NCBI GenBank assembly: GCA_027623315.1
Contig: JAQBYD010000006.1
Coordinates: forward strand, 27,209 to 91,208
DNA from: Verrucomicrobiota bacterium
GTDB taxonomy: Bacteria; Verrucomicrobiota; Kiritimatiellia; CAJWTS01
Direction: 5' to 3'
Length of the DNA: 64,000 bases
The position numbers were made by a program, and so were the translations under genes. A model generated the notes under the pieces. That model ran no database searches. It was not told where the DNA came from and worked only from the letters and a program-made list of their open reading frames with translations. This document shows positions 1,144-62,828 of this stretch, piece by piece; within the stretch, counting starts at the first letter, position 1, and each line of letters starts with the position of its first letter.

Positions 1144-2121
1144 TTATCCTGTTAACTCCCTGGCGGCTCGAACGATGTCCGCGCGGCCCGGCAGCGCTGC
1201 ATCTTCGAGGATCGGGCTGGCCGGGATGGGAACGTCGGGTGTCGTGACGCGCTTGATCGGAGCGTCAAGGTAGTCGAATACGTCTTCGAAGATGCGGCAT
1301 CCGATCTCGGAGCTGACGCTGCAGACGCGCGGCGATTCGTCTGTGATGATTACGCGACCCGTCTTGCGCACAGACTCGGCGATCGTCTGCATGTCGAGCG
1401 GCTTGAGCGTTCGCAGGTCGAGAACTTCGGCCCGGATGCCGTCCTCCTCGAGTTGCGCAGCGGCGGCCTCGGCCTCGATGGCCCCACGGCCCCATCCGAT
1501 GATGGTGATGTCTTCACCCTCGACGGCGATCCGGGCCTTCCCGATGGGGATCGTCGTGCGTGACGTCTTGGGGACGGGCCCGCGTGTGGAGTAAAGCGAC
1601 TTCTGTTCGATGAAAATGACAGGGTTGTCGTCCCGGATCGCGGACTTCAGAAGGCCCTTGGCGTCGGCGGGGGTCGCGGGAGCGACCACCGTGAGTCCCG
1701 GCGTATGCATGAACCACGATTCGAACGTCTGGGAATGCGTCGGTCCGTAACGACGACCGCCACCGGCTGCGGCACGAATCACAATCGGGCATTTGGCCTG
1801 CGGACCGTACACGTACCTCAGTTTCGCGGCCTGGTTAACGATCGGATCCATCGCCAGGGGGATGAAGTCCATGAACATGATCTCAACCACCGGGCGCGAC
1901 CCCATCAGCGATGCGCCGACGGCGATTCCCACAAATCCTGCCTCGGAGATCGGGGTGTCGATAACGCGCTGCGGGCCGAAGGTGTCGAGCATGCCGCGCG
2001 TCACGCCGAAAGCCCCGCCATAGGGGCCGATGTCTTCGCCCATCACGAAGACGTTACCGTCGCGGCGTAGTTCCTCGGTCAAAGCCTCGCGCAGGGCATC
2101 GCTGTAGCTGATGGTTCTCAT
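1144..2121 (-). CDS. 2-oxoacid (pyruvate/acetoin/branched-chain) dehydrogenase E1 component, beta subunit
   Basis: 325 aa, transketolase-like fold. Motifs MGEDIG...GGAFGVTRG, IDTPISEAGFVG. Overlaps the E1-alpha stop by 4 nt. Confidence 0.85.
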   Translation of the reverse strand: MRTISYSDALREALTEELRRDGNVFVMGEDIGPYGGAFGVTRGMLDTFGPQRVIDTPISEAGFVGIAVGASLMGSRPVVEIMFMDFIPLAMDPIVNQAAKLRYVYGPQAKCPIVIRAAAGGGRRYGPTHSQTFESWFMHTPGLTVVAPATPADAKGLLKSAIRDDNPVIFIEQKSLYSTRGPVPKTSRTTIPIGKARIAVEGEDITIIGWGRGAIEAEAAAAQLEEDGIRAEVLDLRTLKPLDMQTIAESVRKTGRVIITDESPRVCSVSSEIGCRIFEDVFDYLDAPIKRVTTPDVPIPASPILEDAALPGRADIVRAARELTG

Positions 2122-3077
2122 ACGGTGACCCCATCGAGTAACGTGGCGGGGTCGGGGTCCGGGCTCTGCTTGGCGAATTTTACGGCGGCGCTGACGATGC
2201 GCCGCACGTTGGCCTTGATCTCCTGATCAACTTCCGACGACAGGATGCCTTCGCGGCGAAGGGTTTTGGCCAGTGCCGCGATGGGGTCACGGCGGGCCCA
2301 CGCCTGTTCTTCTTCACGGGAACGGTACTTTCGCGGGTCGCCGCGGGAATGCCCGGAACGTCGATACGTCTTGCATTCGATCAGGGTCGGGCCTTCGCCG
2401 TCGCGTGCGCGGCGACAAGCCTTGCGCGTAACGTCCAGCACCGCGCGGAGGTCGTTGCCGTCGACCGCCGTGCCGGGAATGCCATAGCTGTCCGCGCGCC
2501 GCGCGATGTCGGTGATCGCCATCGAGTCCTCCACGTTCATCGACATGGCGTAGCGGTTGTTCTCGCAGACGAAGAGGACCGGCACTTTCCAGATCGCTGC
2601 CATGTTCAACGACTCGTGAAAGCTGCCCTGGTTGGCTGCACCATCTCCGAAGAAACACACGACGAGCCCTTGCGTGCCCTTCTGCTTGAGGGAGAGGGCT
2701 GCGCCCGTGGCCAGCGCGATGCTGCCGCCGGTGATGCCGTTGGCACCGAGAAATCCAAGTTTGAAATCAGCCATGACCTGGCTGCCACCGCGTCCGCGGG
2801 AGTAACCGGTTTCCTTGCCGAACAATTCGGCCATGATGCGTGACGGATCGCCGCCGCAAGCGATGAAGTGCCCGTGACCCCGATGCGTGCTGGTCACGTA
2901 GTCTCCCTTTCGCAGAGAGTCGCATACACCCACGGCCGTGGCTTCCTGCCCGATCGCGGGATGCGCGGTTCCTGCGATCAGGCCTTTGCTAAAGAGCTCT
3001 TCGACGCGTTCTTCAAAGCGCCTGATCACCAGCATCGTTTGGTACTGTTTGAGACTTTTCTTCACATTAGGTGTCAC
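2118..3077 (-). CDS. 2-oxoacid dehydrogenase E1 component, alpha subunit (TPP-dependent)
   Basis: 319 aa. TPP-binding GDGAANQG...NN motif, HRGHGH and YRxxGHS motifs typical of PdhA/AcoA/BkdA. Confidence 0.85.
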   Translation of the reverse strand: MTPNVKKSLKQYQTMLVIRRFEERVEELFSKGLIAGTAHPAIGQEATAVGVCDSLRKGDYVTSTHRGHGHFIACGGDPSRIMAELFGKETGYSRGRGGSQVMADFKLGFLGANGITGGSIALATGAALSLKQKGTQGLVVCFFGDGAANQGSFHESLNMAAIWKVPVLFVCENNRYAMSMNVEDSMAITDIARRADSYGIPGTAVDGNDLRAVLDVTRKACRRARDGEGPTLIECKTYRRSGHSRGDPRKYRSREEEQAWARRDPIAALAKTLRREGILSSEVDQEIKANVRRIVSAAVKFAKQSPDPDPATLLDGVTV

Positions 3078-4266
3078 TTTTACACAGAGACAGGGTGGCG
3101 ACTGTACCGCCGGGATCGGCCGTCGTCACGAGCATGTTTTCCAACGGCGCCCCGCGTGTGGAGTCCGTAATCGGCGCAACCCTGGCCGCCGGGTCCGGGT
3201 TATCCGCATGGAGTGTAGCTGGAAGCACGCCTGATTCCATAATCAGGATTGCAGCGGCACTTTGAAGGGCCGAGGCGCATCCGCCCGTGTTGCCGAATAT
3301 CGGTACCAGGCTCGTGACCGGAATGGGGTTAGGCTGCTCGTCGAGGAATGCACCGATCCCGGCGCCCAACCAGAGGTCTTGCTCCACGCTTCCGTTGCCC
3401 CCGGCGCAGATCGCATGCGGCGTTCGCGTGGTCGCGGCGGCAAGGGAATGATGCACGGTCGCGGCATATCCGCTCGACTCGACGCCGGCGGCCAGCGAGG
3501 CGCCGGTGATCTCGCCGAGGATCGCGGCTCCGCGCGCGCGCGCGTGGTCGCGCGACTCCAGGACCAAGGTTACCGCGCCTTCGCCGAGCACCGTGCCGTT
3601 GCGGTGAGCCGAGAAGGGGGCGCAACACTCGTCTCCACCGTCGCCCGGCGACAGCTCTCCGAGTTCGCTAAGCCCTTCATAGGCCGCCAGGCTGAGAGCG
3701 TCGACGCCCCCCGCCAGGGCCAGGTCGCAGCGTCCGGTCCGGATCCGGTCGTATGCGTCGATGATGGCGCAGCCGGATGCCACGTTTCCCGACGCGTAGT
3801 TGGCATGGTAACCGCAAATGCCGAACTCTATGGCGATCAGGCTGATCGGCGTGTTGGAGTAGGTATGTGGGAAGAGAAACGGTTTCACCAGCCGGGGGCC
3901 CTTGGCCACAAGGTCCTCGAAGAACAGCGCCATGGTGTCCATGCATCCGAAAGCGGAACCGTAGAAGAGTGCCGCGTTCGCTACGTCCTCCCGGGACAGG
4001 CCCGCGTCGTCGAGGGCGAGTTGGGTGGCGCCCAGGGCAAACTGCGAGGCGCGGTCGAGATAGGTCTGACGCGTCTGCAGGATCTGCTCGAGATCGAAGT
4101 CGCGAATCTCCGCGGCGCGCCGCGTCGGCATGCCTTCGACGTCGAACAAGGTGATGTCGTGGATGCCCGATGTCGCGCTCTCGAGAGCCTGCCGCGTGGC
4201 CACGCGGCCCGTGCCGATCGCGGAGACGGGGCCGATTCCGGTGATGACGACGTCACGTGTGCTCAT
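3067..4266 (-). CDS. Beta-ketoacyl synthase-like protein, KS-beta/CLF-like partner with degenerate active site
   Basis: 399 aa, thiolase/KAS fold. Aligns to FabF but the position of the second catalytic His (KSMTGHLLG) reads FGNTGGCAS, and the Cys position is ambiguous (GNVASGCAII). Overlaps the downstream KS by 4 nt (ATGA). Confidence 0.65.
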   Translation of the reverse strand: MSTRDVVITGIGPVSAIGTGRVATRQALESATSGIHDITLFDVEGMPTRRAAEIRDFDLEQILQTRQTYLDRASQFALGATQLALDDAGLSREDVANAALFYGSAFGCMDTMALFFEDLVAKGPRLVKPFLFPHTYSNTPISLIAIEFGICGYHANYASGNVASGCAIIDAYDRIRTGRCDLALAGGVDALSLAAYEGLSELGELSPGDGGDECCAPFSAHRNGTVLGEGAVTLVLESRDHARARGAAILGEITGASLAAGVESSGYAATVHHSLAAATTRTPHAICAGGNGSVEQDLWLGAGIGAFLDEQPNPIPVTSLVPIFGNTGGCASALQSAAAILIMESGVLPATLHADNPDPAARVAPITDSTRGAPLENMLVTTADPGGTVATLSLCKSDT

Positions 4267-5465
4267 CGACTTCTGGCCTCACGAAGTACGAGCGCGGCAT
4301 TGGTCCCACCGATCCCGGCCGAATTGGAAAGCACGCAACGCGTGGTGTGCTCACGCGGTTGATCACGAACGAGATCGATGTCGCAAGCCGGATCCGGTTG
4401 ATCCGCGTTGAGGGTCGGCGGGATCAGGCCGCTACGGATAGTCATGATGGAGGCGATCGCCTCGGCACTTCCCGCGGCTCCCATCATGTGGCCCGTGGCG
4501 GACTTGTTGGCGGTGACGGGCAGGGACGAAGCGCGCGCACCGAAGACTTCATGAATTGCGGTCGATTCGGCGACGTCGTTATGGGGCGTCGCCGTTCCAT
4601 GCGCATTGACGTGGTCGATCGCGTCGGCTGCCATGCCGGCGTCCGCGAGTGCCATGCGCATGACGTCGGTCGTGCCTTTGCTATCCTTGGACGGTGCGGT
4701 GAGATGATAGGCGTTGTTGTTCAGCGCGTACCCGCTGAGTTCCGCGTATATCGGCGCGCCACGCTGGTGGGCATGGTCTTCGCTCTCCACGATCAGAACG
4801 CCGGCTCCTTCGCTGAAAATGGTGCCGTCTCGCCGGGCGTCGAACGGGCGCACCGCGTCGTGGGACATGGCGCGCAGGGCGCTCAGACCGCTCCACGCGA
4901 AACGGGAGAGCACGTCGTAGCCGCCGGTGAGAACCATCTCGGCCCGCCCGGCCCGAATCCAGTCGGCGGCCAGTCCCATCGCGGCTGTGCCGGAGCTACA
5001 CGAGAGCGACAGAACGCTGCGCGGGCCGGTGAAGCACCACGTGTTGGCGACGTGGTCGGCGCTGCGCAGAAAGCCGTACTCGCTGAAGTCCTCCAGGCCC
5101 GATGCTTCGCTGGACTCGCCGAGCAGATGCTCCGCCGAGGTGATGCCGCCGAAGTTGGAGGCGGCGATGACAGCGACCCTGGCGAGGTCGACGTTCGCGG
5201 TGGCGAGCTGCGCGTCGGCGACGGCCTCGTCTGCAGCGGTCAGTAGGAACTGTGTTGCCAGGTTCGCATGACGGCCCGCGGCCGCGATGTGGGCCGGAAG
5301 TTCAAAAGAGGAGATCTCGCCACCACGCGTAAAGGGAAACCCTTCAGTATCGAAGCGCGTGATCTCTCGAATTCCGCACTGCCCTTCGAGCAGGGCGGTC
5401 CAGAACGCATCGACGCCATTGCCGATCGGCGAGACGATTCCCATTCCGGTTACGACAACAGACAC
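4263..5465 (-). CDS. Beta-ketoacyl-ACP synthase II-like (KS-alpha) with complete Cys-His-His triad
   Basis: 400 aa. LSLSCSSGTAAM (Cys), HVNAHGTATPHND (His) and KSATGHMMGAAG (His) match the FabF/KAS II catalytic motifs. Confidence 0.85.
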   Translation of the reverse strand: MSVVVTGMGIVSPIGNGVDAFWTALLEGQCGIREITRFDTEGFPFTRGGEISSFELPAHIAAAGRHANLATQFLLTAADEAVADAQLATANVDLARVAVIAASNFGGITSAEHLLGESSEASGLEDFSEYGFLRSADHVANTWCFTGPRSVLSLSCSSGTAAMGLAADWIRAGRAEMVLTGGYDVLSRFAWSGLSALRAMSHDAVRPFDARRDGTIFSEGAGVLIVESEDHAHQRGAPIYAELSGYALNNNAYHLTAPSKDSKGTTDVMRMALADAGMAADAIDHVNAHGTATPHNDVAESTAIHEVFGARASSLPVTANKSATGHMMGAAGSAEAIASIMTIRSGLIPPTLNADQPDPACDIDLVRDQPREHTTRCVLSNSAGIGGTNAALVLREARSR

Positions 5466-5509: not shown

Positions 5510-6253
5510 TTACATCACCATGCCGCCATCGACCGACAAGACCTGGCCGGTAATGTAACCCGATCGATCCGAGGCGAGAAAGATCGCGGCCCGGGCGACA
5601 TCGTCGGGTTCGCCGAAGTGTCCGAGTGGTACTCGCTCGAGCAGGGCGGCGCGCTTAGCGTCGCTAAGCGCTTTGATCATATCGGTTTCGATCACCCCGG
5701 GAGCGATCGCATTCGCGGTAACGCCAGACGTCGCAAACTCGCGCGCGGCGGCCTTGGTCAGGCCGATCATGCCGGCCTTTGCTGCCACGTAGCTGGCGCG
5801 CATTGCGTCTCCCGTGATGCCCGCTGCAGAACTGATATTGATAATGCGGCCGTAGCGTGCGCGCATCATGTCCCGGCCGACGGCCTTGATGCAGGTAAAC
5901 GCGCCGCGAAGATTGATGTCCACCACGTCGTCCCACTCCTGGTCGCTCATAAACGTGATCGGCTTGTCGCGAAGGACGCCGGCGTTGTTCACGAGGATTC
6001 CGACAGGACCGAGTGCAGCTCGGACCTCGGCAACCATTTTCGCGACTGCCTCGGTGTCGCGCACATCGGTTCGGACGGCAACCGCGCTCCCACCCGCCTC
6101 GTCAATCTCGCGCACGGTGTCGGCCGCCGCGTCGGCATCGTTCACGTAGTTGATACCGACGGCTGCCCCGGCTCGGGCAAGTGCCATGGCTATGGCGCGG
6201 CCGATACCGCGTGATCCGCCGGTGACGAGCGCTGTCCGGCCCGCGAGGGTCAT
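5510..6253 (-). CDS. fabG: 3-oxoacyl-ACP reductase (SDR family, FabG-like)
   Basis: 247 aa. TGGSRGIGRAIA Rossmann motif, NNAG, S...YxxxK (SYVAAK) catalytic motif. Closest general match is FabG. Confidence 0.85.
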   Translation of the reverse strand: MTLAGRTALVTGGSRGIGRAIAMALARAGAAVGINYVNDADAAADTVREIDEAGGSAVAVRTDVRDTEAVAKMVAEVRAALGPVGILVNNAGVLRDKPITFMSDQEWDDVVDINLRGAFTCIKAVGRDMMRARYGRIINISSAAGITGDAMRASYVAAKAGMIGLTKAAAREFATSGVTANAIAPGVIETDMIKALSDAKRAALLERVPLGHFGEPDDVARAAIFLASDRSGYITGQVLSVDGGMVM

Positions 6254-6732
6254 GGCTTGGCCGCTGTGCGAACCATTTCTTCACTGACGATCTCGCTATC
6301 GCCGGCAGCCGCGACATCCGTGAGATCGATCCCGAGTTCGCGGGCGAGTCGTCGCGCTGCCGGCGTAGCGCGGACCCGCGCGCGTGGTCCGCTCGAGCGC
6401 TTTTTGGGTTGGGTCTTGCGCGATGTCTCGGCGCGCGCACGATGCTCTGTCATGAGCGTCTTGTTCTCCGGGTCGACATCGGGCAGTGGATCCGATGCGC
6501 TCCCGATGAGCGCAATCACGTAGTGCACGGGGACGTTGCTTTTCACAGGGGCAACGATTCTGCGAAGGGTCCCTGCCTTCGGCGATTCGAACTCGAAGGC
6601 GGTCTTGTCGGTAGTGACCTCGGCGATGGGTTCCTCTTTGCGGACCTTGTCGCCCTCGTTCTTCAGCCAGGCCGTTATCGTGGCCTCCTCGATATTAGCG
6701 CTTAGCTTGGGCATTCGTATCTTTGCGATCAT
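6250..6732 (-). CDS. Lipoyl-domain plus E3/E1-binding (PSBD) protein lacking the E2 acyltransferase catalytic domain
   Basis: 160 aa. N-terminal MPKLSANIEEATITAWLKNEGDKV...EVTTDKTAFEFESPKAGTL is a canonical lipoyl domain with the lipoyl-lysine in TDKT. An Ala/Pro-rich linker follows, then ATPAARRLARELGIDLTDV, a peripheral-subunit-binding domain. It stops there, with no CAT domain. Confidence 0.75.
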   Translation of the reverse strand: MIAKIRMPKLSANIEEATITAWLKNEGDKVRKEEPIAEVTTDKTAFEFESPKAGTLRRIVAPVKSNVPVHYVIALIGSASDPLPDVDPENKTLMTEHRARAETSRKTQPKKRSSGPRARVRATPAARRLARELGIDLTDVAAAGDSEIVSEEMVRTAAKP

Positions 6733-6764: not shown

Positions 6765-9700
6765 TCAGCCGCCCTGCTTGTCCGGCGCGGCCTTAATCGA
6801 CGCGGTCTCACTCGCGTCCGGACGGAGGCCGGGGACGGTGCCGCCCGGCAGCGGCAGACGAAACGGCGGCGAAGCGTTACCGGCCTTGTCACGCACCTCG
6901 ACGCTGATCCAGCTGCCTTTCGCGGGTGCAACCTGCGCCTGCGCCGGAGCAACGCTCAGCGAATCGGTTTCGTTCGCGACCCACCATCTGACGCCCGCCA
7001 CACCGCTCGCGTCATACGCGTCCAGGGTCACTTCGTCGGTCTCCTTCCATTCTCGCATCACGAAGAATGACTCGATGTCCAATGGGGAGATCTTATTCGT
7101 ACTGGCCTGGTGTAGAGATAGGCTGGTGATGGGCCGTTTGAGCAGGAGTTCGATCGGCTCCGCCTCGTCTTTTTCTTTAGCGGCGACGATGTTGTTCATC
7201 AATTCTTCGAACTCATCTTCTTCTGCCTGTGACTCGAGCAGCTTCTTCAGATCGACGATGACGGGTTGCCACTGCCCCGCCTTCCATGTGACGGGGTGAT
7301 CGAGTGCCAGGGCCCCTTTGCGCGGCGTCGGACCGGACAGGTGAACGGTGTAGTTGAGGTCCTTTCCCATCGTGAACGTCATCTCGATATTCGTCTCGTC
7401 GTCTTCTGCCACGGATGGCCTGCGCAGGCGCATCGCGATCAAGGGATGCTCCCCCGCTCGCCATATGTTGGGTTTGGCGAATGCCTGCGTCACCCACGCG
7501 TTGGTCATGGCTTCCGCGGCCGAGAAACGGGCGAAGGGGATCGGCCCATTGGTGCGAATGAGCGAGACGGTCGCGCCCTTGATGCCCGGTTCGAAAGTCG
7601 ATTTGAGAATCGCCGTGTTTTCGTACCCGGCGCTCCAGAGGATGTTGGAGGGATACGCGATCGAGAGAAGTGTTGGAGGCATCTTGTCTTTCGAGTAGTC
7701 GGAGGCAAACGGTACGCGCAGGTCCTCGACCGGGTTCCCTGCGCCGTCGCGAATATCGGAGAGAACCATCCAGTTGGTCACGCCATCCGTCGATGCTCGC
7801 AATGGTTGTCGGAAGCAGTAGGCCCAGGAGATCCCGAGCGTGTCCTTGTCCGGCGAATGGGCAAAGGTTGAACGCTCCAGGGGAAAGCTGAGAACGTCCT
7901 CGTTCCAACGCGCCTTCACGGTGGAGTAGTCCAGCGGAGCTCCAGAGCCCTGGAAGAAGTGAATCGCGATCTGGCCATCATTGGAGTAGGCCTTGCTGGC
8001 CTCGTCGAAGCGATAGTTACGACGCGGTGGCTCGCGATCCAGCAGGAATGGAATATCGGTAACCGACGACGATGTTCCCTTGGTGTCGGCCGCTCTAAAG
8101 AGGATGTGATGCCGGCCGTCTTCAAGACCGGCGAGGTCGGGGGTGGCCTGGTCGGCATTGGGAATTGCACGCCAGGGAAGGGCGGCGATGGCCGAGGCGT
8201 CGAGGTCCGCCGCCGGGGTCGCGCCGGGCAGAACGGCGATGGAGACCGAGGCGATCCCGTCAGGATCGGAGTAGTTCGGGGTCATGGCAAGTTGGGCGGC
8301 CTCGCGCACGGCTGGACCAAAGACGAGATCGTCGATCTCCCACCGGGTATAGAGTCCGGACTGGTCGACCGCGTGCTTGGAGCCGAAATTAACACTCGGC
8401 ATCAGGTAGTGCTCGTGATCGAACTTCGGATCCAGGGCGGCGCGACTGACGGGGCCGTGCCAGGTGTGCCACTGATCGTCGAGGGTCAGCGAGTCTCCTA
8501 CGACCTGACCGGTTTTGTCCTCGCTCAGGTGCACCACGTACGTGCCGAGCGCGAGAGATACGCGCCCCAGGCGCGGTGCGCGGTAACGAAACTGGAAGAT
8601 GGGAAACCGGGCCAGGTTGATCTTGCGGTTGATGCCGGCCGCCAGCCGGTGCGCGGCGCCAAAGTTGCGAACTCGCAACGCTCGTCCCTGCAGAGGGTCG
8701 TCGTGCTGGAGCGTGATTCGCGGGGGCGTTATGGCCAGACCTTGCGGTGGTGTGTCGGCTTCGAAGTTGATGAATAGCAACGACTCGTTGGCTAGTTCGG
8801 TCAACTCCGGGCGCTCGGGTAGGGGGCGTTCACTCCATTGGAGTTTGATTGCGTACGGACGCTGCCCCGCTTTGAATGTCCCTTCGAGAATGGGGGACTC
8901 TGCGTCCGTGAATGGCGAGCCTCGCGGGATTGTGGCCATGCGGCTGAACCCCGGCCCACGGACCAGCGGGACCGGAACTTTGGCGAGGGCCAACGTTCCC
9001 ATGATGAAACGCGGATCGGGATAATCCCCATCGTGTTGGATCAGGATGGTGCCCGTCCGATTGGTGGACCATGCGGCCGAAACGGCCAGCGACTCCGGCA
9101 GGTGAATCCACGCGATCGGGACGCGGTGCAGGCCGTTCGAGGACGCGTACTCCAAACGGTGATGTTGCAGGGCGGGATATGTCTGGGCCACGGTCCACGT
9201 GTTCAACTTCTCAAGCGTCTTGAACTCATGCGACGGCCCGCCCGCCTCGGGAGTGGTTTTGAACGGGGCGGTTGCGGTCCCGGACTTCGCGATCTCGAAC
9301 GCGGGCGGCACGTAGCGAACTTCGCGCAGGCCCTTGACGGCATAGGCGGCGCTGGGCCCGTTTCCGTGGAGGCCCTGCGCGACGAAGCTGGGTTGTAGAT
9401 TCCCGAATCCGGCGATTTGAACCACGAGGCCTGCGCGCTCGTCCTGACGAAGTTCAAGCTCTGGAAGCCAGACCTTGACGCGCTGCCAGTCTTCATTCTG
9501 GTGCCATCGGTCCCCGGACATGCTGACCGGGTCAACCGGCGAGCTGCCGGCCGCCGCGAACGTCTTGTCCGGGTTCTCCGATCCTGAGAGGTGGTGAAAG
9601 TACCGCCGCGCCACCACGAACCTGTTCGAAGGGGATAGCGTTCCGACGTCAAGATGGAAATTGAACTGGGCGCCGGGCGTGCGTTTGACGTCGAACTCCA

Positions 9701-12700
9701 GCCCGGCCAGATCCTTTAACGCTACGGGGGGAGCCTGACCAACCGCCGCCATGCTGCCGCCGCCCAGAGTGTTTCGTAACACGAAATACGGCTCACCATC
9801 GGCGGTCGTGTGCCAATCGAGCAGTGCTCTTCCCGCATCGGTCGTTGACGTCCAATACGCAGGCTGCATCAGGTCCGCGCTCGCGCCGCTGATGACCAGA
9901 CCGCCGTCGTCCCGTGTGAGTGTCTCCGCAACGGCCTCGGCCTTTTCGTCGAGCGAGACAGCGCGGAAGGATCGCGTTGCGGGGCGAATATCTTCAGCCG
10001 CAATCTTGACGCGCGCGATGACCATGGAATTGAGGTAGGTCCAGATCCCGAGCGACCCGGACTGGAGCGGTTCATGGTCGTCCACGGCGAAAACGAGCTC
10101 GTTATCGAAGTAGTACTCGAGGCGCTCACCGACGCGGCGAAGCTTCACGTAGTACCAGGCTCCGTGCACGGGGCGTCCGTCGGCGACCAGGGGGGTCAAA
10201 CCGTGCCGTGTGCTTCCTTCGCGAACGCGCGGCACGAGGTACTTGTCGGATTCGGTGAAGGTCTTCCCGTTGCGGTACAGCCGGGTATAGAGCTGCGAGT
10301 GATCGAAATCCCATCCGCTGCAGGTGACCGTGTATCCCTGGCTGGGGGCACCCGACGCACTGTGTACGGTCAGGTTCAGATCGCCGGGGCGCGCGTACCA
10401 GCCGTGGCGAGTCCCGGCGTACATCTCCACGCAAAAATCGCCGCTAAACTGGTACTTCGACCAGAGCGACGCGACGCCGTCTCGGGATTGCCCGTTCATG
10501 TGCGACCAACGCGGGTCGCACTGGAAGCGATTGACGATCTCCCACCGCCCACCGTTGACCGTCCAATCGTGGAGCGACTCCGTGAACAGGTAGTCTTTCA
10601 CCTGGTACCGCTCCGCCAGTGTATGCACCAGTTGCTGGACGGTGAACCCGGCGATGCGCACGCGCCGTCCCTCCAGGACGTGCGGCAGGGCGTGGGAGAT
10701 CAGGACGTTGTCGCCGCTGCTGATCCATGTCCAGTAGCCCTCGTGATGAATCGAGTAGAGCTTCACCTTCCCGTCCGGCGCGACCAGGTTTGTGGTCGTC
10801 GTATCAGCGACGACGCGGAACCCGCCGTCTTTCGGATCGCGCACCGCCAGGCGTATGGCGTCGGCATCAGCGATTATGCGAATGGCACCGTTCGTCTCAC
10901 CTTCTTTGACACCGAGATGTATTTCCGAGCCGTCAACCAGGGGCATTTGGAGTTTGAAGCGTCCGAAGAAGTCGCCCTTATGCCACATGGTCTTATTCGT
11001 ATGGGTGAACCATTCACCTTCGGGCGATGACCAGTGACGCATGAACTTGTCGTCCGCGAAAATGCGGTTCTTCTCATATTGGTTGTGGTGAAGGTCGTCC
11101 CGGTGAAAGTCGTATCGCACATCCCGGACCTGGGCGGCGCTATTGGGGCCGACGTAGATACCCGATGCGCCGCGCGGCTCCTCGGTGGGATGGTGGATCA
11201 GGACGAGGGTGTCGTTGTCGTACATGCGCATCTCTCGCGGATTGCCGGCGTCGATCATCAGGGAGCGCCACATGTCGCGGACGCGCGATTGCCCGCCGGG
11301 CTGCGTGAATTCCGTGATCACTTCGGGCTCCGAGTGGTTCACGCGCTCCAGCTTGTAGACAACGCGGTCCGGTTCCTGGCGGCGCGTGAAGCGGTAGTAG
11401 GGCTTGTCCGCAGCCGTATACCCCGCAAGAAGCCCGATATGGCTCTCGGCTTGATGGGGCTGGAAGTGAGCCGAGAAGATATGCGCGGCGTCGGCCGGCG
11501 AACCGACGACGATCCATTGCTCGGAGCTGCTGGACCCGACCTTCAGCGCGTCCCACTCGCGCCGCGGGATAAATAGCCCGGATAAGGGCCCGCGTGGAAA
11601 GATGCGCCCCTCTTCGGCGATGGTGTGGTAGCGCAGTTCGTGGATGTCGCCGAGGTCCAGGCCGTGATTGCTCGCGGCGTCAACATCGTCGAAGCGAGTT
11701 CCGGCGTCACCGTGGGCATACAGTCCCAGCAGCCCGCCGTCGGGTAACTCGTGCCGAATATCGAAGACCTTGACGTTGTCCAGGTAGCACTCGATGCGGT
11801 TGAAGTAGGTCTTCACGCCTAGCTTTACCCATTGCTCACGGCCGACATCGGTGTCGGCCACCGCCAACACGGTGGGGGTTCCTTCGTCGTCGGGAGAGGC
11901 CTTCTTCAGCCGCAGCCGGCTTTCGCCTCCGCCGCGAAGGGGTTCGGCCGTGAATGCAAAGTAGTCGTTCGAGCCACGATGCAGGAACACCAGCCCGGCC
12001 TCGATGGGCATAATTTGCATGGATGCTTCGTAGGTGAAGGCGTCGTAGAAGGTGTGGCCGGTCGTGATCACGGCGTTGGTTCCGGACCCGTGCAGGCTGT
12101 AGAAGTTCGGGCTGTGCTCCGCCTTGAGGCCCGTTCCCCCCTCCAGTTTGTCCTGCACCGTGATGTGATCGAGGACGGTGTGAAGTCGCCACGTACCCGA
12201 CTCGATCTCCCATGCGTCGAGCTGATTCTCGTCGCCCTCGGGGACCAGGAAGTCGTCGTGAAAGACAAAGTCTTCGATTTTCTGGTACCGCGCGTCGGTC
12301 TCTCCCGATGTCGGGAACTGGTCGGCAGGCATCGAGAGGCTGCCGGGTGGGACGAAAGGAGATGGAAACGCCGCGACCGGCCGGCCCTGCAGATAGATGG
12401 CCCACATTTCGTTGCGGATCTTCAGAACCACCTCTGCGTCCTCGATCGATTCCGTCGGCAGAGCGTTCAGATGAAAGCGACTTCCGGCTTGCAGGGCGCG
12501 GGGGAAAGCGGATGCCGGGACGGGGGTTATGGTCCCGCGAGTTCGCTCAAGTCGCACGAGAATGGCGGCTTCTCGATCACCCTGCGCGATTCGCAGGCTC
12601 AGCCCGGCGTCCGGGTTCCACCGTGCCCGGAAAGAAAGGTTTCCGGTGGGAGTGTCGAATCCCAGCACGTCCGTAGATTCCGCATCGGCATAGGCCAACT

Positions 12701-12761
12701 GTGCCGCTGCCATCAGCAGCACGAAACCCCTTGTCAAAATAGAGAATTTGGATCGTCCCAT
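6765..12761 (-). CDS. Giant secreted protein (~1998 aa) with repeated concanavalin-A-like lectin/LamG/DUF1080-like beta-sandwich segments
   Basis: The track ORF runs 6765..13463, but its first 234 aa are low-complexity read-through. A convincing start is the ATG at 12761-12759, giving MGRSKFSILTRGFVLLMAAAQLAYA, a signal peptide. Internal segments such as DWTVNGGRWEI...GDFCVEMYAG...SGSLGIWTYLNSMVIARVKI resemble DUF1080/LamG folds. The domain call rests on motif resemblance only. Confidence 0.6.
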   Translation of the reverse strand: MGRSKFSILTRGFVLLMAAAQLAYADAESTDVLGFDTPTGNLSFRARWNPDAGLSLRIAQGDREAAILVRLERTRGTITPVPASAFPRALQAGSRFHLNALPTESIEDAEVVLKIRNEMWAIYLQGRPVAAFPSPFVPPGSLSMPADQFPTSGETDARYQKIEDFVFHDDFLVPEGDENQLDAWEIESGTWRLHTVLDHITVQDKLEGGTGLKAEHSPNFYSLHGSGTNAVITTGHTFYDAFTYEASMQIMPIEAGLVFLHRGSNDYFAFTAEPLRGGGESRLRLKKASPDDEGTPTVLAVADTDVGREQWVKLGVKTYFNRIECYLDNVKVFDIRHELPDGGLLGLYAHGDAGTRFDDVDAASNHGLDLGDIHELRYHTIAEEGRIFPRGPLSGLFIPRREWDALKVGSSSSEQWIVVGSPADAAHIFSAHFQPHQAESHIGLLAGYTAADKPYYRFTRRQEPDRVVYKLERVNHSEPEVITEFTQPGGQSRVRDMWRSLMIDAGNPREMRMYDNDTLVLIHHPTEEPRGASGIYVGPNSAAQVRDVRYDFHRDDLHHNQYEKNRIFADDKFMRHWSSPEGEWFTHTNKTMWHKGDFFGRFKLQMPLVDGSEIHLGVKEGETNGAIRIIADADAIRLAVRDPKDGGFRVVADTTTTNLVAPDGKVKLYSIHHEGYWTWISSGDNVLISHALPHVLEGRRVRIAGFTVQQLVHTLAERYQVKDYLFTESLHDWTVNGGRWEIVNRFQCDPRWSHMNGQSRDGVASLWSKYQFSGDFCVEMYAGTRHGWYARPGDLNLTVHSASGAPSQGYTVTCSGWDFDHSQLYTRLYRNGKTFTESDKYLVPRVREGSTRHGLTPLVADGRPVHGAWYYVKLRRVGERLEYYFDNELVFAVDDHEPLQSGSLGIWTYLNSMVIARVKIAAEDIRPATRSFRAVSLDEKAEAVAETLTRDDGGLVISGASADLMQPAYWTSTTDAGRALLDWHTTADGEPYFVLRNTLGGGSMAAVGQAPPVALKDLAGLEFDVKRTPGAQFNFHLDVGTLSPSNRFVVARRYFHHLSGSENPDKTFAAAGSSPVDPVSMSGDRWHQNEDWQRVKVWLPELELRQDERAGLVVQIAGFGNLQPSFVAQGLHGNGPSAAYAVKGLREVRYVPPAFEIAKSGTATAPFKTTPEAGGPSHEFKTLEKLNTWTVAQTYPALQHHRLEYASSNGLHRVPIAWIHLPESLAVSAAWSTNRTGTILIQHDGDYPDPRFIMGTLALAKVPVPLVRGPGFSRMATIPRGSPFTDAESPILEGTFKAGQRPYAIKLQWSERPLPERPELTELANESLLFINFEADTPPQGLAITPPRITLQHDDPLQGRALRVRNFGAAHRLAAGINRKINLARFPIFQFRYRAPRLGRVSLALGTYVVHLSEDKTGQVVGDSLTLDDQWHTWHGPVSRAALDPKFDHEHYLMPSVNFGSKHAVDQSGLYTRWEIDDLVFGPAVREAAQLAMTPNYSDPDGIASVSIAVLPGATPAADLDASAIAALPWRAIPNADQATPDLAGLEDGRHHILFRAADTKGTSSSVTDIPFLLDREPPRRNYRFDEASKAYSNDGQIAIHFFQGSGAPLDYSTVKARWNEDVLSFPLERSTFAHSPDKDTLGISWAYCFRQPLRASTDGVTNWMVLSDIRDGAGNPVEDLRVPFASDYSKDKMPPTLLSIAYPSNILWSAGYENTAILKSTFEPGIKGATVSLIRTNGPIPFARFSAAEAMTNAWVTQAFAKPNIWRAGEHPLIAMRLRRPSVAEDDETNIEMTFTMGKDLNYTVHLSGPTPRKGALALDHPVTWKAGQWQPVIVDLKKLLESQAEEDEFEELMNNIVAAKEKDEAEPIELLLKRPITSLSLHQASTNKISPLDIESFFVMREWKETDEVTLDAYDASGVAGVRWWVANETDSLSVAPAQAQVAPAKGSWISVEVRDKAGNASPPFRLPLPGGTVPGLRPDASETASIKAAPDKQGG

Positions 12762-13104
12762 CGGTTGCCCTGAACCTGCTCCGCGAGCATGATGTGTTCC
12801 ATGATTACGCATTATACAAGACTTCCGCGCCCGAATCGCGCTCGCCGTGGGGCCGGTAGCCAAGACTTCACGCTTAGACTCGCCTATAACATCCGAAAAG
12901 CCAAGTGTTTTGGGATAAAAGCGAGCTTCGATCGCCCTGTCCCGGCCGCCTGGATCGCCGTTCAAGCCCCATTTCGGGCTCAACTTTCTTTCGACTGGGG
13001 CCAGCGCGGACCCCGCCCGGCCCGTGCATGCGTCCCCCGGTACCCATTCCACGAGCAGATGCGATTTCTTGTATGCATTTGTAACCTTGCGGTCCCCATG
13101 GACG

Positions 13105-13482
13105 ATGTACCGTATAGAGGCCGCCGTAGTGCCGCTCAAGGTGAGAATCGTGAAGCAGATTCTCGAGCAAGAGTATGATGAGGCGGCGGTGCGTGCTGCC
13201 AGCGAGGAGATTGCAGACCAGATCCAGACGGCTGCTTTGACGCTCTCGACGGCCGTCGGTGAGGTGCGAGACGTCCTCACGGACGAACAGATCGCCAAGC
13301 TGGAGACGATGAAGAAGAAAGCGATCGCCCGGCACGAGCAGCGCTTGGGCGCCATGGTCGAGATCATCGATACGTTGAAGGATGGATCCCGCTCCGTTAC
13401 GATGCAGCATTGGGCCGGCGTGGAACGCATCCGCGTCCGGCCTGTCTGCTGGAATGAATGCATCCGAGGATATCACCGATGA
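13105..13482 (+). CDS. Small LTXXQ-motif (Spy/CpxP-like) protein, no obvious signal peptide
   Basis: In frame with track ORF 13024..13482. ATG at 13105 gives MYRIEAAVVPLKVRIVKQ...LTDEQIAKLETMKKK. The start is uncertain and the ORF overlaps the sigma-factor start by 29 nt. Confidence 0.4.
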   Translation: MYRIEAAVVPLKVRIVKQILEQEYDEAAVRAASEEIADQIQTAALTLSTAVGEVRDVLTDEQIAKLETMKKKAIARHEQRLGAMVEIIDTLKDGSRSVTMQHWAGVERIRVRPVCWNECIRGYHR

Positions 13483-14041
13483 CTGGGCTGTCATTCAGCG
13501 CGTGCGGGATGGTGACGTCGATTCGTTCGAGGAGCTTGTGACCGCCTACCAGGAACTCGTGTTCGGAATCGTGGCCCGGCGCGTTGCCGGCCCGGACGTG
13601 GAGAGCGTGGCGCAGGACATCTTCGTCTCCGCGTTTCAATCGTTAAAGGCCTATCATCCACGTGAACCTTTTCGCCGATGGCTCAGCACGATCGCGGTCC
13701 GTCGTTGCGTTGATCACTGGCGCAAGAAGGGTCGGATCCGGGAGATGACGGGGTCCGAGTTGAGCCCGGCGCAGTCCGATTGGCTCGAGCAGGCGGCTTC
13801 GTCGCTTTCACGCGACGAGTTCGAGAAGGCCCTGGTGCACGAAGAGGCGGCGGAAGTACTTGACCTCGCGCTACGCAGGATGGATCCTGAAGGGAGAGCG
13901 CTGATCGAACTGGTTTACTTCGAGGATCAACCGATGAAGGACGTGGCACGCTTCCTGGATATCAGCGTCTCGAACGCGAAGGTTAGATCTCATCGCGCGC
14001 GCCAGAAGTTGCGCAAGATTGTCGAGGACATGCTATCGTGA
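13454..14041 (+). CDS. ECF-type RNA polymerase sigma-70 factor (sigma-24 family)
   Basis: Start revised to ATG 13454 (MNASEDITDDWAVIQRVRDGDVDSFEELV...). Region 2 (YxxLVFGIVARRV, DIFVSAF) and region 4 (YFEDQPMKDVARFLDISVSNAKVRSHRARQKLR, an HTH) are recognisable. Confidence 0.85.
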   Translation: MNASEDITDDWAVIQRVRDGDVDSFEELVTAYQELVFGIVARRVAGPDVESVAQDIFVSAFQSLKAYHPREPFRRWLSTIAVRRCVDHWRKKGRIREMTGSELSPAQSDWLEQAASSLSRDEFEKALVHEEAAEVLDLALRRMDPEGRALIELVYFEDQPMKDVARFLDISVSNAKVRSHRARQKLRKIVEDMLS

Positions 14042-14343
14042 GTGACCGCGCAAAACAGACGGAAAAGGCGCTCAAGGAGGCCTATCTTCGCCGGGAGAGT
14101 CCGGTGCTGCCCGAGGACTTCTCGAGCCGCGTGATGGCGGCCGTACACGACCAGCATCGGCAGTCCCAAGTCGTTGATTTTCCCGCCGGTGATGGAGGGC
14201 TGTGGATGTTCGCCCGTTTCGCCGCGGCCGCGGCCACCATGGCGATCGTGTTCGGTTACTCACAATACGCGTATGGAGATTTGCTCCCGTCAATTTGGTC
14301 GTCGGACATGATTGGTCTGACGTCCATGATGTCGGGGTTCTGA
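14038..14343 (+). CDS. Putative anti-sigma factor (small, single C-terminal TM segment)
   Basis: 101 aa. ATGA overlap with the ECF sigma gene. Hydrophobic stretch MFARFAAAAATMAIVFGY. Position and size are typical of cognate anti-sigma factors. No sequence motif support. Confidence 0.5.
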   Translation: MSDRAKQTEKALKEAYLRRESPVLPEDFSSRVMAAVHDQHRQSQVVDFPAGDGGLWMFARFAAAAATMAIVFGYSQYAYGDLLPSIWSSDMIGLTSMMSGF

Positions 14344-14344
14344 T

Positions 14345-14713
14345 ATGAAGAACATGCGAACGTGGCTAGGTCTTCTGCTGATCTTTTTCAGCGGGGTTGT
14401 CATCGGAGGTGTCGGTGGCATGGCCATGACCGGAAAGATGATCCGGTCGAGGTTACATGGCGATCCAGGAATCATTCAGAAGCACGCCGTGCGGCGACTC
14501 GGCCGCACACTTGACCTGAACGAGGAGCAGCGAGCGGCCGCACAGCAAATCGTGGGCAATGCCGTCCAGCAGGCGCATGACCTGCATCGCGAGGTTAAAC
14601 CGCGCTTCAAGAAGATTGTCTCCGGAGCTGTAACCAATTTGCACGAGCACCTCACGCCCGAGCAACGGGTGAAGCTGGATGAGATGCACGAACACTGGCA
14701 AGGACGGCACTGA
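14345..14713 (+). CDS. Periplasmic LTXXQ-motif protein (Spy/CpxP/ZraP family)
   Basis: 122 aa. N-terminal signal/anchor MKNMRTWLGLLLIFFSGVVIGGVGG. Two LTXXQ-type motifs (LNEEQRAAAQQI, LTPEQRVKLDEM). Starts 1 nt after the anti-sigma stop. Confidence 0.7.
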   Translation: MKNMRTWLGLLLIFFSGVVIGGVGGMAMTGKMIRSRLHGDPGIIQKHAVRRLGRTLDLNEEQRAAAQQIVGNAVQQAHDLHREVKPRFKKIVSGAVTNLHEHLTPEQRVKLDEMHEHWQGRH

Positions 14714-15152
14714 CGGTTATTGGTTGTTGGTGTGTCGCCTTGAAATGGGTTGTCCCCCTATGCCGGGGCGAGAACTATCTGATACGATGGCATACGAGCA
14801 AGAGCTTACTGAACTGGAAGAACACGTGGCTACGGCAAAGAGTTTCGTGGCCAAGCTGCCGAAGAAATAGCGTGCAACGCTTTGGAGTGCGGCGACCCGG
14901 CGCCGCTCTGGCACGGCTCGCGTGGATCGCGCCGGAGGAAATACACGCCATCGCTTAGGCATGACGCTGAAGCGTTCGTGGTGGCACCCGCGCAATACGC
15001 AGAGCGGCGCCAGGTCGCCGCACTCCAGGGAGTCGCTGGCGCGGCTCGCACTTGATCCGACGCCACCCGGACCCATTCCACGACCGGCTGCCGATTGTAA
15101 TATCCCGCCGACCCCGACTTCTTTACGATGTCCACAATCAAAGGAGGTTGAA

Positions 15153-15707
15153 ATGACGAAGTGCCCGGTCTGCAAGAGACAAGGAATGACTAGAGTGGCG
15201 ACTGGTGATGGACTGTCCGTGCTCGCGTGCGATGCGTGTGGCGGCCAGTGGCTGTCGCGCAAAGATTACGAAGCGTGGCTCTCCGCCCACGGGGAGACCT
15301 TGCCGGAGAAGGCGTACTCCGAGGTGAAATTCGATATCGAGGACGTCCACGATGCAAAGGTCTGTCCAGACTGTTCGCGCTTTCTCCTGAAGTATCGCGT
15401 GGGTCACGGCCTGGACTTCTATGTGGACCACTGCGGGTCGTGCGGCGGTGTTTGGCTCGACAAGCATGAGTGGAACGCGCTGAAGGATAAGAATCTTCAT
15501 GACGAGATTCATCGCGTATTCTCGACGCACTGGCAGGCCGACGTGCGGAAGGAGCAGATGAGCGACTGTCTTGACAGCGTATACCGTTCCCGCTTTGGCG
15601 AGAAGGACTACGAGATGGCCCGCCAGGTACGTAGCTGGATTCAGGCGAGCGAAGATCGTGACGCACTCATCCGGTTTCTGGCGGATGACGATCCGTACGC
15701 GGTCTAG
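15153..15707 (+). CDS. Tandem zinc-ribbon (zf-TFIIB-like) domain protein
   Basis: Start revised to ATG 15153, preceded by AAAGGAGG 8 nt upstream. Two repeats of CPxC...CxxCGGxWL (CPVCK..CDACGGQWL and CPDCS..CGSCGGVWLD). Confidence 0.7.
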   Translation: MTKCPVCKRQGMTRVATGDGLSVLACDACGGQWLSRKDYEAWLSAHGETLPEKAYSEVKFDIEDVHDAKVCPDCSRFLLKYRVGHGLDFYVDHCGSCGGVWLDKHEWNALKDKNLHDEIHRVFSTHWQADVRKEQMSDCLDSVYRSRFGEKDYEMARQVRSWIQASEDRDALIRFLADDDPYAV

Positions 15708-18945: not shown

Positions 18946-19143
18946 CTTGAGAATCGACTGGGCGATGGTGCTGGAACGGACACCGAATGGCAAGGCGGGA
19001 TGAAGCGGTTACTCCGGGGAGAGTTACGGTTTTCGCGGGCAGAATCGTATCGGCCCGGGCTCCCTGATTCACAGACTGATGGCACGAGTCCTGCTCTTCA
19101 TCTATAGTAGAGGTGCTCTGGGGTCACCGCTGCGGGTTTGGGT

Positions 19144-36097: not shown

Positions 36098-36811
36098 TCA
36101 GGAGCAGTTCCGCGTCGGCGCGGTGGTTTCGTATCCGAAAGCCTCAAAGTCTTCGCGGTAGAACGCCCGGACGATCTCGGCGGACTCGGGGCAATAGTAC
36201 TCCGAGTAGTCGTTGCGTTCGATTTGGTTGAGGTGCAGCGGGGCCGTGTGTGGGAGTTTGAGTTCTTCGAAGAGGCGTTTCAGGTCTGCCTCGAGCGTCT
36301 CAACGCTGCCGAGAAAGTCGAGTCGCGTGTGCTCGATCCAGCGCACCTGCGGATTGCACTGACTGGTTCCGTTGACGTTGAAGAGCCCGATTGGATCGCA
36401 GCCGCGCTCGCCGAGTTCACGGCAGAAAGCCAGGAAGGATTCCTGGCCGGCGCCGGGACACTTTGCAGCTCTCAGGTAGAAATAGAGAGACACCGCCCGG
36501 GCATAGGGATTGCGAGAGAATGCAAACTTGAAGGCAGATCTATCAAAGCGCCGCGATACGTGGCCCTGGCTGACCAGTTCTGCGTAGTCCATATGTGTGA
36601 ACGTGACCGTCCCGCGTTGGGCGAAGCGGTACTTGGCGTGGTAGGCCGTTTTGAATTGCGGCGCGTTCAGCATGTTGAAGATACTCGTGCCGGCGTTCTT
36701 CGGAATCCATATGAATACGGCGTTTCGTCCACGCGCGGAGAAATACTCCTTGAGAAAGCGCAGACCCGTGACGTCGAAGAGGCGTTTCGTCGTGCGATGC
36801 AGGTCGATCAC
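36098..36811 (-). CDS. Sulfotransferase (PAPS-dependent, Sulfotransfer_2-like)
   Basis: 237 aa. 5'-PSB motif FIWIPKNAGTSIFNML and a 3'-PB-like region (RNPYARAVSLY). Confidence 0.7.
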   Translation of the reverse strand: MIDLHRTTKRLFDVTGLRFLKEYFSARGRNAVFIWIPKNAGTSIFNMLNAPQFKTAYHAKYRFAQRGTVTFTHMDYAELVSQGHVSRRFDRSAFKFAFSRNPYARAVSLYFYLRAAKCPGAGQESFLAFCRELGERGCDPIGLFNVNGTSQCNPQVRWIEHTRLDFLGSVETLEADLKRLFEELKLPHTAPLHLNQIERNDYSEYYCPESAEIVRAFYREDFEAFGYETTAPTRNCS

Positions 36812-55345: not shown

Positions 55346-56245
55346 CTATGTCCCGGAATAGCCCAGTTTTCGATTCAGGGGGCCTGCTGTTCGCTCAAAG
55401 ACAGCTAAATCCTTTTCGGTCAGCCTGCTTTTCCATGTCTCTACATTTACGATTTTATCTTCACCGCTGAACCGCATCCTGTTTCCACCGATAAGGTGCC
55501 GCTCCCGGCCTCTTAAGTGCAGTATATCCTCTGTGTAGGGTTTTTCCAGAAAGTCTGCGAGTTCACGCATGGTACTTTCCGGGTCGCGGCAAAGATCTTC
55601 ATACCGCAGTGCTTTCAGGTTCATGGAAGGGCCGGATCTAAATATGGATCCCGCCATCCGGTTGTCGTGGAGCCATGTTTTGGCAGCACGCTCTGCCGGC
55701 ACCTCTTTACGCATGGCGGAGGCCATGACGGCGCGCCCATCCCGAATTAGATGAATCACCCGTGCATTGCGCGGGAGCCGGGTCCTCAACCATTGCGCTG
55801 TCATAATGGACTTCGATGAATCGACAACGGCCTCGGCGGGTGCCGTTTTCAGGACGGCATCATAGAGCCGGATCATATTTTTGAGGATTGCATCGCTGCC
55901 AAATCCGGCGCAGCCCTGTGGGTGAATGACCGCGGAAGCCAGCCGGGCATAAAAGCTGAGCTTCTGGAGTTGGTTGTTTCGCTCGGCTTCGAGGGAGAGG
56001 CGGAAGGCATTTATGGTTTGATCGGCCGCTGTATCCCCCGCCAGCCCCAGTTCGTCTAAAATGGGATTCCAGAAGGGGCATGTTTGCGGTGGTTTCCCGC
56101 AGGTGCAGTGTTCATGCGTTTTGAGGAACAGAGGCAGCCATTTCACTTCACCCAGCGAGACGGTGCCGGACATGTTTCCTATAAGCAAATCCAGAAGCGT
56201 GGATCCACTGTGCCCCGAACTGAAAATGTATATGTATCGAACCAT
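55346..56245 (-). CDS. Sulfotransferase (Sulfotransfer_3-like, P-loop 5'-PSB)
   Basis: ATG at 56245 gives MVRYIYIFSSGHSGSTLLDLLIGN, a PAPS 5'-phosphosulfate-binding loop. The track start at 56296 is GTG. 3'-PB-like RDGRAVMAS. Converges with the upstream GT4 (3-nt gap). Confidence 0.65.
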   Translation of the reverse strand: MVRYIYIFSSGHSGSTLLDLLIGNMSGTVSLGEVKWLPLFLKTHEHCTCGKPPQTCPFWNPILDELGLAGDTAADQTINAFRLSLEAERNNQLQKLSFYARLASAVIHPQGCAGFGSDAILKNMIRLYDAVLKTAPAEAVVDSSKSIMTAQWLRTRLPRNARVIHLIRDGRAVMASAMRKEVPAERAAKTWLHDNRMAGSIFRSGPSMNLKALRYEDLCRDPESTMRELADFLEKPYTEDILHLRGRERHLIGGNRMRFSGEDKIVNVETWKSRLTEKDLAVFERTAGPLNRKLGYSGT

Positions 56246-56317
56246 GTTCGCGTCAGTTCGAAATAGTAATGAAGTGCGTGGTCTGCTGCGGATCACTTCT
56301 TTCGAATAGCCTTTGCA

Positions 56318-62815: not shown

Positions 62816-62828
62816 GCCGAGCACTTTT

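Follow-up and report, generated by a model that had tools for sequence, protein, structure and literature searches.

The ketosynthase gene pair

The window analysed here is a stretch of 64,000 nucleotides from contig JAQBYD010000006.1 of a Verrucomicrobiota bacterium, and the system in question is a pair of overlapping FabF-family genes near its first position, one for a ketosynthase (KS) and the other for a homologue that resembles a chain length factor (CLF) and has lost its catalytic residues:

3067..4266, minus strand: CLF-like, catalytically dead FabF-family protein of 399 amino acids (Pfam, HMMER, MAFFT)
4263..5465, minus strand: active KS of 400 amino acids, with a GTG start after an AGGAG ribosome-binding site

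Two open reading frames (ORFs) are present where the initial annotation had placed them, and they share the 4-nt ATGA that it had described, made up of the stop of the KS gene and the start of the CLF-like gene. The order that it gave, with the degenerate gene first, is reversed, because the two genes are encoded on the minus strand, which puts the canonical KS upstream of the degenerate gene; read on the plus strand, the same coordinates give frames full of stops. The product of 3067..4266 is identical to NCBI MDA0321214.1. Pfam PF00109 is matched by the CLF-like protein (E=3e-27) and by the KS (1e-34), and the C-terminal, His-bearing Pfam domain is recognized in the CLF-like protein at 21.5 bits against a threshold of 20.8. 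Both proteins stay below the cut-off of the NCBIfam fabF model TIGR03150 (493.75 bits), with 380.9 bits for the KS and 203.2 for the CLF-like protein, and canonical FabF paralogues are located elsewhere in related metagenome-assembled genomes (MAGs; L007, L037 and L038, the L numbers designating related loci and contigs).

The catalytic set of the KS is complete (Cys156, His289, Lys321 and His326), and the three motifs previously listed for it are found as LSCSSG, NAHGT and NKSATGH. The three segments noted in its partner, GNVASGCAII, HAICAGGNGS and FGNTGGCAS, are likewise present, and residue mapping, based on HMMER alignments to Bacillus subtilis FabF and chains B and C of PDB entry 9s5h and on a MAFFT alignment including the neighbouring KS, gives the same result with both programs: all four catalytic residues are missing from the CLF-like protein, with Asn161 for the Cys, Gly289 for the first His, Val321 for the Lys and Asn326 for the second His. 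No intact Cys-His-His triad is thus recovered by alignment in this protein, as had been proposed. The first His was earlier thought to be retained in HAICAGG; it is not, because that residue, His284, falls five positions ahead of the catalytic one, which is occupied by Gly289. Of the two candidate nucleophiles put forward at the same time, Asn161 does stand at the Cys position, and the alternative of a shifted Cys finds no support in the alignment, where Cys166 lies five residues past that position and is unconserved in the family. Across about 65 CLF-like family members aligned with MAFFT, the Cys position is taken by A, V, S, G, M, F, N or C, the first His mostly by A, N, S or G, and the second by Glu, with Asn or Asp in the sub-clade of the window protein, while the Lys is usually retained. 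The Gln typical of the CLFs of aromatic polyketide synthases (PKSs) at the Cys position is absent from the CLF-like protein and is not conserved in the family alignment.

The loss of these residues is not accompanied by a loss of the fold or of selective constraint. The AlphaFold (AF2) model of the CLF-like protein, built from a 34-sequence alignment, has a mean pLDDT of 92 and a pTM of 0.93, and superposes on the ishigamide KS Iga11, which is its first-ranked Foldseek match, on B. subtilis FabF and on Escherichia coli FabF (EcFabF; 1KAS) with a TM-score of about 0.9, so that the protein is predicted to fold as a complete KS. In comparison with the homologue in L044, which is 93% identical, dN/dS is 0.22 for the CLF-like gene, 0.21 for the KS and 0.24 for the neighbouring ketoreductase (KR). 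The ORF is intact and has 37–93% identity across more than 60 proteins, and 20 residues are invariant, 6 of them within residues 122–143 (the KGPR-VKPFLFPHTY-NT segment). The gene is under purifying selection, and is functional and not decaying.

In every related locus the KS gene lies directly upstream of the CLF-like gene, often with the identical 4-nt overlap, and in at least 10 loci (L011, L027, L028, L033, L034, L035, L037, L038, L040 and L041) the two are a single ORF consisting of the KS, a short linker and the CLF-like half, with two ketoacyl-synt domain stretches in Pfam. These fusions provide strong comparative evidence for a physical complex, and a KS/CLF-type heterodimer is well supported by the gene comparisons. 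The fused ORFs encode 640–860 amino acids (for instance L011:8636-11227, L033:4676-6964 and L040:66-2036). In an orphan sub-clade (L033, L034, L038, L039 and L040) there are no pyruvate dehydrogenase E1, lipoyl-protein or KR neighbours, with a divergent or shortened C-terminal half in the CLF part. The earlier suggestion that the genes form a KSα/CLF pair and not a housekeeping FabF is borne out by the missed fabF cut-off, the paralogues elsewhere and the fusions, with the exception of the cluster types named with it, which are considered below.

The most conserved motif of the CLF-like family, KPFLFPHTY, lies within the conserved KPFLFPHTYSNT loop (residues 128–139) and is aligned with the tunnel-lining loop of amxFabFmut, an inactive FabF homologue from anammox bacteria, whose tunnel residues Phe135, Thr138 and Val139 align with Phe132, Thr135 and Tyr136. 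It is proposed that this helix-loop-helix may supply one wall of the acyl tunnel of the KS, as a chain length factor does. On the KS side, Phe105 occupies the 'back gate' position of EcFabF Ile108 (Ala110 in the anammox KS amxFabF2), and this Phe is present in all 34 cassette KSs, in the motif [ST]NFGG. The best PDB sequence match of both KS-type proteins is 4ls6, the I108F variant of B. subtilis FabF, ahead of the wild type; this substitution narrows the back gate, and FabF then mainly elongates C6 to C8 and stops at about C8 (PMC9006962). Phe105 of the KS together with Tyr136 of its partner would point to a short acyl pocket. At the gate position corresponding to EcFabF Phe400 and amxFabF2 Phe394, the KS has Ile385 (AGIGG), and Ile is found in all cassette copies. 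In the housekeeping FabF paralogues (L007, L037 and L038) the motifs corresponding to the two positions are G[IV]GG and GFGG, the latter at the gate. The orphan fused KS-CLF proteins without E1 (L033, L034, L038, L039 and L040) have Phe here, in contrast to the Ile of the cassette copies; this co-variation of gate and E1 tracks one clade and may be no more than a phylogenetic effect.

The operon around the pair

The two genes belong to a tightly packed minus-strand operon, which is cut by the start of the window and is continued on the Logan contig L047, identical to the window over 2362 nt, by the complete acyl carrier protein (ACP) of 85 amino acids and then two α/β hydrolases:

6765..12764, minus strand: conserved head gene for a secreted protein of about 2000 amino acids, with signal peptide MGRSKFSILTRGFVLLMAAAQLAYA; the probable start is Met234 of a 2232-amino-acid ORF reaching 13463
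6250..6732, minus strand: 160-amino-acid protein with a lipoyl domain (Lys43, TDK motif) and a peripheral-subunit/E3-binding domain (PSBD), without an E2 core (mini-E2)
5510..6253, minus strand: FabG-like 3-oxoacyl-ACP reductase (the KR), 247 amino acids, with the Ser/Tyr/Lys triad present
2118..3065, minus strand: pyruvate dehydrogenase (PDH)-type E1α with the thiamine pyrophosphate (TPP) motif GDG...NN; start at 3065 as in NCBI, with the ORF readable back to 3077
1144..2121, minus strand: PDH-type E1β, 325 amino acids
241..1113, minus strand: family-2 glycosyltransferase (GT2), 290 amino acids
1..225, minus strand: first 75 codons of the ACP, with the motif DVDSVSLLEL, cut by the window start
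L047:3200-4039, beyond window position 1: hydr1-like α/β hydrolase in which a Cys (GICSG) takes the place of the Ser nucleophile in alignments with solved serine hydrolases
L047:2400-3236, beyond window position 1: hydr2-like α/β hydrolase with Arg at the nucleophile position (GLRLG)

The NCBI records of the window proteins (MDA0321211-216, from a 'Verrucomicrobia bacterium' MAG) carry only generic names. The same gene order, from the giant secreted protein through the lipoyl/E3-binding mini-protein, KR, KS, CLF-like protein, E1α/β, GT2, ACP and two hydrolases to family-4 glycosyltransferases (GT4s), recurs in about 27 loci of Kiritimatiellia, Lentisphaerae/Victivallales and Verrucomicrobiota MAGs at 35–70% protein identity; two or three GT4 genes end the cassette, to which L001 adds a MurJ-type flippase. 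The lipoyl Lys, the PSBD, the ACP Ser, the KR triad and the TPP motif are conserved family-wide. No dehydratase, enoyl reductase, cyclase/aromatase, radical-SAM or thioesterase gene is found in any cassette copy, in the window or in the related loci, and none of the 39 genome matches is a cultured organism. The cassette is conserved in uncultured bacteria of the PVC superphylum and is previously undescribed; in the literature searched, the coverage of which is incomplete, no description was found of a KS/CLF joined with both a PDH-type E1 and a lipoyl carrier. In one Lentisphaerae MAG (L010:1-4825) the arrangement is KR-KS-CLF-GT2-ACP-hydrolase, in which GT2 follows the CLF-like gene without the E1α/β genes that all other cassette copies have there. 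About 20 loci have the head protein as their first cassette gene; in the PDB no sequence matches it at E<=1, and in Pfam it gives only sub-threshold matches to DUF1080 (3-keto-disaccharide hydrolase) and DUF6250, both lectin-like folds.

The E1α is nearer to human PDH E1α (226 bits) than to the branched-chain E1 of BCKDH (135 bits), and against the NCBIfam PDH models the E1β exceeds the cut-off (399 bits against 321), whereas the E1α is just under it (377 against 394). In the mini-E2 family the lipoyl Lys is set in a T[D/S/E]K motif and the PSBD is near-invariant (ATPAARRLA). The E2 catalytic acyltransferase core is absent from the mini-E2 and an E3 gene is absent from the cassette; because all 120 homologues listed have 155–193 amino acids, the mini-E2 is a distinct family and not a truncation. 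Among NCBIfam models it is matched best by AcoC (PRK14875), in the N-terminal part; the C-terminal part of AcoC is hydrolase-like. The features at the nucleophile position of the two hydrolases, the Cys of G-[IV]-C-S-G in the hydr1-like and the Arg in the hydr2-like protein, are kept in the L047 pair and in 6 further hydr1-like and 13 further hydr2-like copies. A Cys nucleophile would suit a transacylase, and the two hydrolases appear to be the second pair of active and dead paralogues in the cassette. That they might replace the hydrolase-fold domain of AcoC, as a 'split AcoC', was considered from matches of only 21–23 bits and is kept as a possibility and not as a result.

Known relatives, proposed pathway and alternatives

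By sequence, as determined with HMMER, the closest solved heterodimer is formed by chains B and C of 9s5h. These are identified as the anammox proteins amxFabF2 and amxFabFmut, encoded in the ladderane gene cluster, only from the numbering of their residues (offset 5 in chain B and 1 in chain C), the numbers matched being Cys165, His335 and Phe394 of amxFabF2 and Phe135, Thr138 and Val139 of amxFabFmut from Brocadia fulgida (bioRxiv 10.64898/2026.05.19.726425). According to the same source, activity requires both proteins, and a helix-loop-helix of the mutant subunit lines the substrate tunnel. The likeness includes a FabF-derived active KS with a triad-less FabF homologue, both from bacteria of the PVC superphylum, and most of the CLF-like family, with the exception of the window protein, resembles amxFabFmut in having Val or Ala at the Cys position, Asn or Ala at the first His and Glu at the second. 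In contrast, the mutant gene is upstream in the anammox pair and the CLF-like gene downstream here; anammox cluster I has radical-SAM enzymes and amxACP, whereas no radical-SAM or other ladderane genes are found here; the tunnel Val is replaced by Tyr, Ala110 of the KS by Phe and the gate Phe394 by Ile; and the identity, at about 30%, does not exceed that to B. subtilis FabF, in a context of E1/lipoyl genes and glycosyltransferases. In an unbootstrapped neighbour-joining tree the triad-less proteins all group together, and the clade of cassette KSs is placed close to amxFabF2 and separate from FabF. That the CLF-like family might be specifically related to amxFabFmut was considered and is not maintained, since the identities of the family are flat, at about 31–32% to every reference; common ancestry is not claimed.

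Other systems share parts of this arrangement. In the highly reducing and non-aromatic type II PKSs for ishigamide (Iga11/Iga12), aryl polyenes (ApeO/ApeC) and cispentacin (AmcF/AmcG), a KS with an inactive partner is likewise accompanied by a discrete ACP and a FabG-like KR, and the better NCBIfam matches include AmcF and AmcB, all with scores under the family cut-offs; unlike those systems, the cassette has no dehydratases and no adenylating loader and is centred on glycosyltransferases and a PDH-type E1. Because dehydratases are lacking in the cassette, a polyene cannot be made. The actinorhodin KSα/KSβ (1TQY) also combines an active KS with an inactive, tunnel-shaping homologue, translationally coupled and in the order KS then CLF. 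The active-site Gln, cyclases and aromatases are absent here, and the resemblance in sequence is weak (for the actinorhodin KS, 78 bits to the CLF-like protein and 204 to the KS). The E1 and E2 of acetoin and pyruvate dehydrogenases share the TPP-dependent E1α/β and the lipoyl carrier, which here stand beside an ACP-dependent pathway; they differ in that the cassette has no E2 core or fused hydrolase domain and no E3, and is coupled to the KS/CLF. E1/E2-like proteins act as glycolicacyl-ACP loaders in the quinocarcin and naphthyridinomycin systems. For both hydrolases, the best models are the exosortase-A-associated hydrolases 1 and 2 of proteobacterial exopolysaccharide loci (TIGR03100 and TIGR03101), also paired beside an ACP in a glycan locus, with scores under the cut-offs (104–166 against 168 and 150–174 against 203, respectively). 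Neither an exosortase nor a PEP-CTERM gene was observed in the window, and the pair here differs further in the Cys nucleophile of the hydr1-like and the Arg of the hydr2-like protein, the genes of both being outside the window.

Taken as a whole, it is probable that the dead FabF-family subunit and the active KS encoded upstream of it form a heterodimer within a PVC operon that makes a short 3-hydroxyacyl-ACP for a glycoconjugate. For the route itself, we infer the acetyl starter, every transfer step (from lipoyl to KS or to ACP), the chain length and the acceptor. In this route, the PDH-type E1α/β would decarboxylate pyruvate and load acetyl on the lipoyl-lysine of the core-less 160-amino-acid mini-E2; the acetyl would pass to Cys156 of the KS or to the ACP, in a direct transfer or by way of the Cys-nucleophile hydrolase encoded past the window; the KS/CLF would condense it with malonyl-ACP; and the FabG-like KR would yield a short 3-hydroxyacyl-ACP, most simply 3-hydroxybutyryl, from which a hydrolase-fold transacylase and the GT2 and GT4 enzymes would place the acyl group on a secreted glycoconjugate. 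A possible acceptor or scaffold is the giant head protein. The more specific proposal that the E1 and the core-less lipoyl/PSBD carrier are a loading module for the KS/CLF, perhaps acting through the Cys transacylase with its dead paralogue, and that 3-hydroxyacyl or oligo-hydroxyacyl decorations are placed on a secreted glycoconjugate, is tentative and somewhat unlikely as it stands. If correct, priming from a lipoyl arm would be a previously undescribed start of polyketide or fatty-acid synthesis and way of acylating glycans, as well as a new use of the 2-oxo-acid dehydrogenase toolkit, and would imply that bacteria of a little-studied phylum carry an acylated surface glycoconjugate of unknown kind. 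KS/CLF pairs are usually taken as markers of aromatic polyketide, aryl-polyene and ladderane pathways, and here the pair stands in a glycan-type operon. Genome-mining rules keyed on FabF-like KS pairs could misassign the cassette. The tunnel with its natural Phe105 and Tyr136' and the Ile385 gate are ready test cases for FabF-derived models of chain length and gating.

Several observations weigh against this route. No enzyme known to remove an acyl group from a dihydrolipoyl arm is found in the cassette, the hydrolases reaching only about 22 bits with the hydrolase-fold domain of AcoC. In L010 the E1 genes are missing from their usual position, and E1 may therefore be dispensable or encoded elsewhere. 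The anammox heterodimer amxFabFhet self-primes by decarboxylation of malonyl-ACP, so that a KS/CLF need not have an external supply of starter (bioRxiv 10.64898/2026.05.19.726425). Chain length is read from two aligned residues, and housekeeping FabZ and FabI acting in trans could give longer chains. The Ile385 gate could instead point to α-branched units, by analogy with the type I PKS KSs accepting such units, in which Phe400 is replaced by Val or Ile (PMC9006962).

Some of these points can also be accommodated by a different reading, in which a self-priming KS/CLF of the anammox kind, with housekeeping FabZ and FabI in trans, provides a medium-chain (C6–C10) 3-hydroxy fatty acid for a rhamnolipid-like glycolipid, and the E1/lipoyl proteins serve otherwise, for example in the supply of acetyl for O-acetylation or in acetoin or 2-oxo acid cleavage. 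The combination of α/β hydrolases, glycosyltransferases and a 3-hydroxyacyl-ACP resembles RhlA/RhlB chemistry, which would suit such a product. This reading, which is judged unlikely, also draws on the formation of acetoacetyl-ACP from malonyl-ACP by amxFabFhet without a starter enzyme, on the lack of E1 genes at their usual position in L010, and on the ability of the FabF I108F mutant still to reach C8 (PMC9006962). Against it stand the placement of E1α/β, in about 27 loci, with the CLF-like gene immediately on one side and GT2 on the other and with frames overlapping or nearly touching, and a mini-E2 without E2 core in a cassette without E3, which is therefore not a normal dehydrogenase complex; the Phe gate of the E1-less orphan fusions, as opposed to the Ile of the cassette, points in the same direction, with the reservation that the co-variation is confounded by phylogeny.

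A conventional secondary-metabolite KSα/CLF system, such as an aromatic type II PKS, aryl-polyene or ladderane cluster, is what the initial annotation had favoured, and a KS, a triad-less partner, an ACP and a KR are indeed all present, the KS reaching 238 bits with the cispentacin AmcF model and the L001 ACP 70 bits with AmcB (both below cut-off), while among solved heterodimers 9s5h_B/C, taken as the anammox pair, comes nearest in sequence. These cluster types are nevertheless not sustained: cyclase/aromatase, FabZ-like dehydratase, radical-SAM, thioesterase and aryl-polyene-type exporter genes are lacking from every copy, the Cys position is variable in the family and has no Gln, the match to the actinorhodin KS is low, no known CLF other than 9s5h_C is among the top PDB sequence or Foldseek matches, and the CLF-like family is about equidistant from amxFabFmut, amxFabF2 and FabF, all of which makes this explanation improbable. 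Still more remote is the view that the 3067..4266 gene is a functionless, decaying duplicate of FabF, or that the pair serves ordinary fatty-acid synthesis; the disappearance of all catalytic residues and a C-terminal Pfam match barely over threshold would agree with decay, and are outweighed by the intact and conserved ORF, the low dN/dS, the confident fold, the invariant motifs, the fusions with the KS and the sub-cut-off fabF scores, so that this view is considered highly improbable.

Wider surroundings and distant homologues

Divergent from the cassette, an extracytoplasmic function (ECF) sigma factor (13382-14041, plus strand) is followed by LTXXQ-motif and Zn-ribbon proteins, and the whole segment (13382-15707, plus strand) is possibly a regulatory unit, which is not conserved beside the cassette in L001 or L002. 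Further on, 19138-27105 (plus strand) encodes a 2655-amino-acid protein with a reprolysin-like metalloprotease domain, a Calx-beta domain, a P-domain and 11 DUF11 repeats. A large glycan-biosynthesis region extends over 36098-64000, with about nine GT2/GT4 genes, an Asn-synthase-like gene, sulfotransferases (36098-36811 and 55346-56296), an ABC exporter (56318-58099), an MBOAT O-acyltransferase (60492-62042) and a SASA-family esterase (62066-62905). The GC content, about 0.61, drops to 0.45–0.53 past 52 kb, which suggests acquisition of this part.

More distant triad-less FabF homologues occur among housekeeping genes, either as a lone pair of KS and partner (L045:6736-9161) or as a single orphan gene (L046:8001-9218), and these settings indicate that inactive paralogues of FabF occur widely, and not only in recognisable biosynthetic clusters. 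Two of the distant homologues, P0064 and P0078, were considered as a guide to function and set aside as uninformative here, since they lie among housekeeping genes without the cassette.

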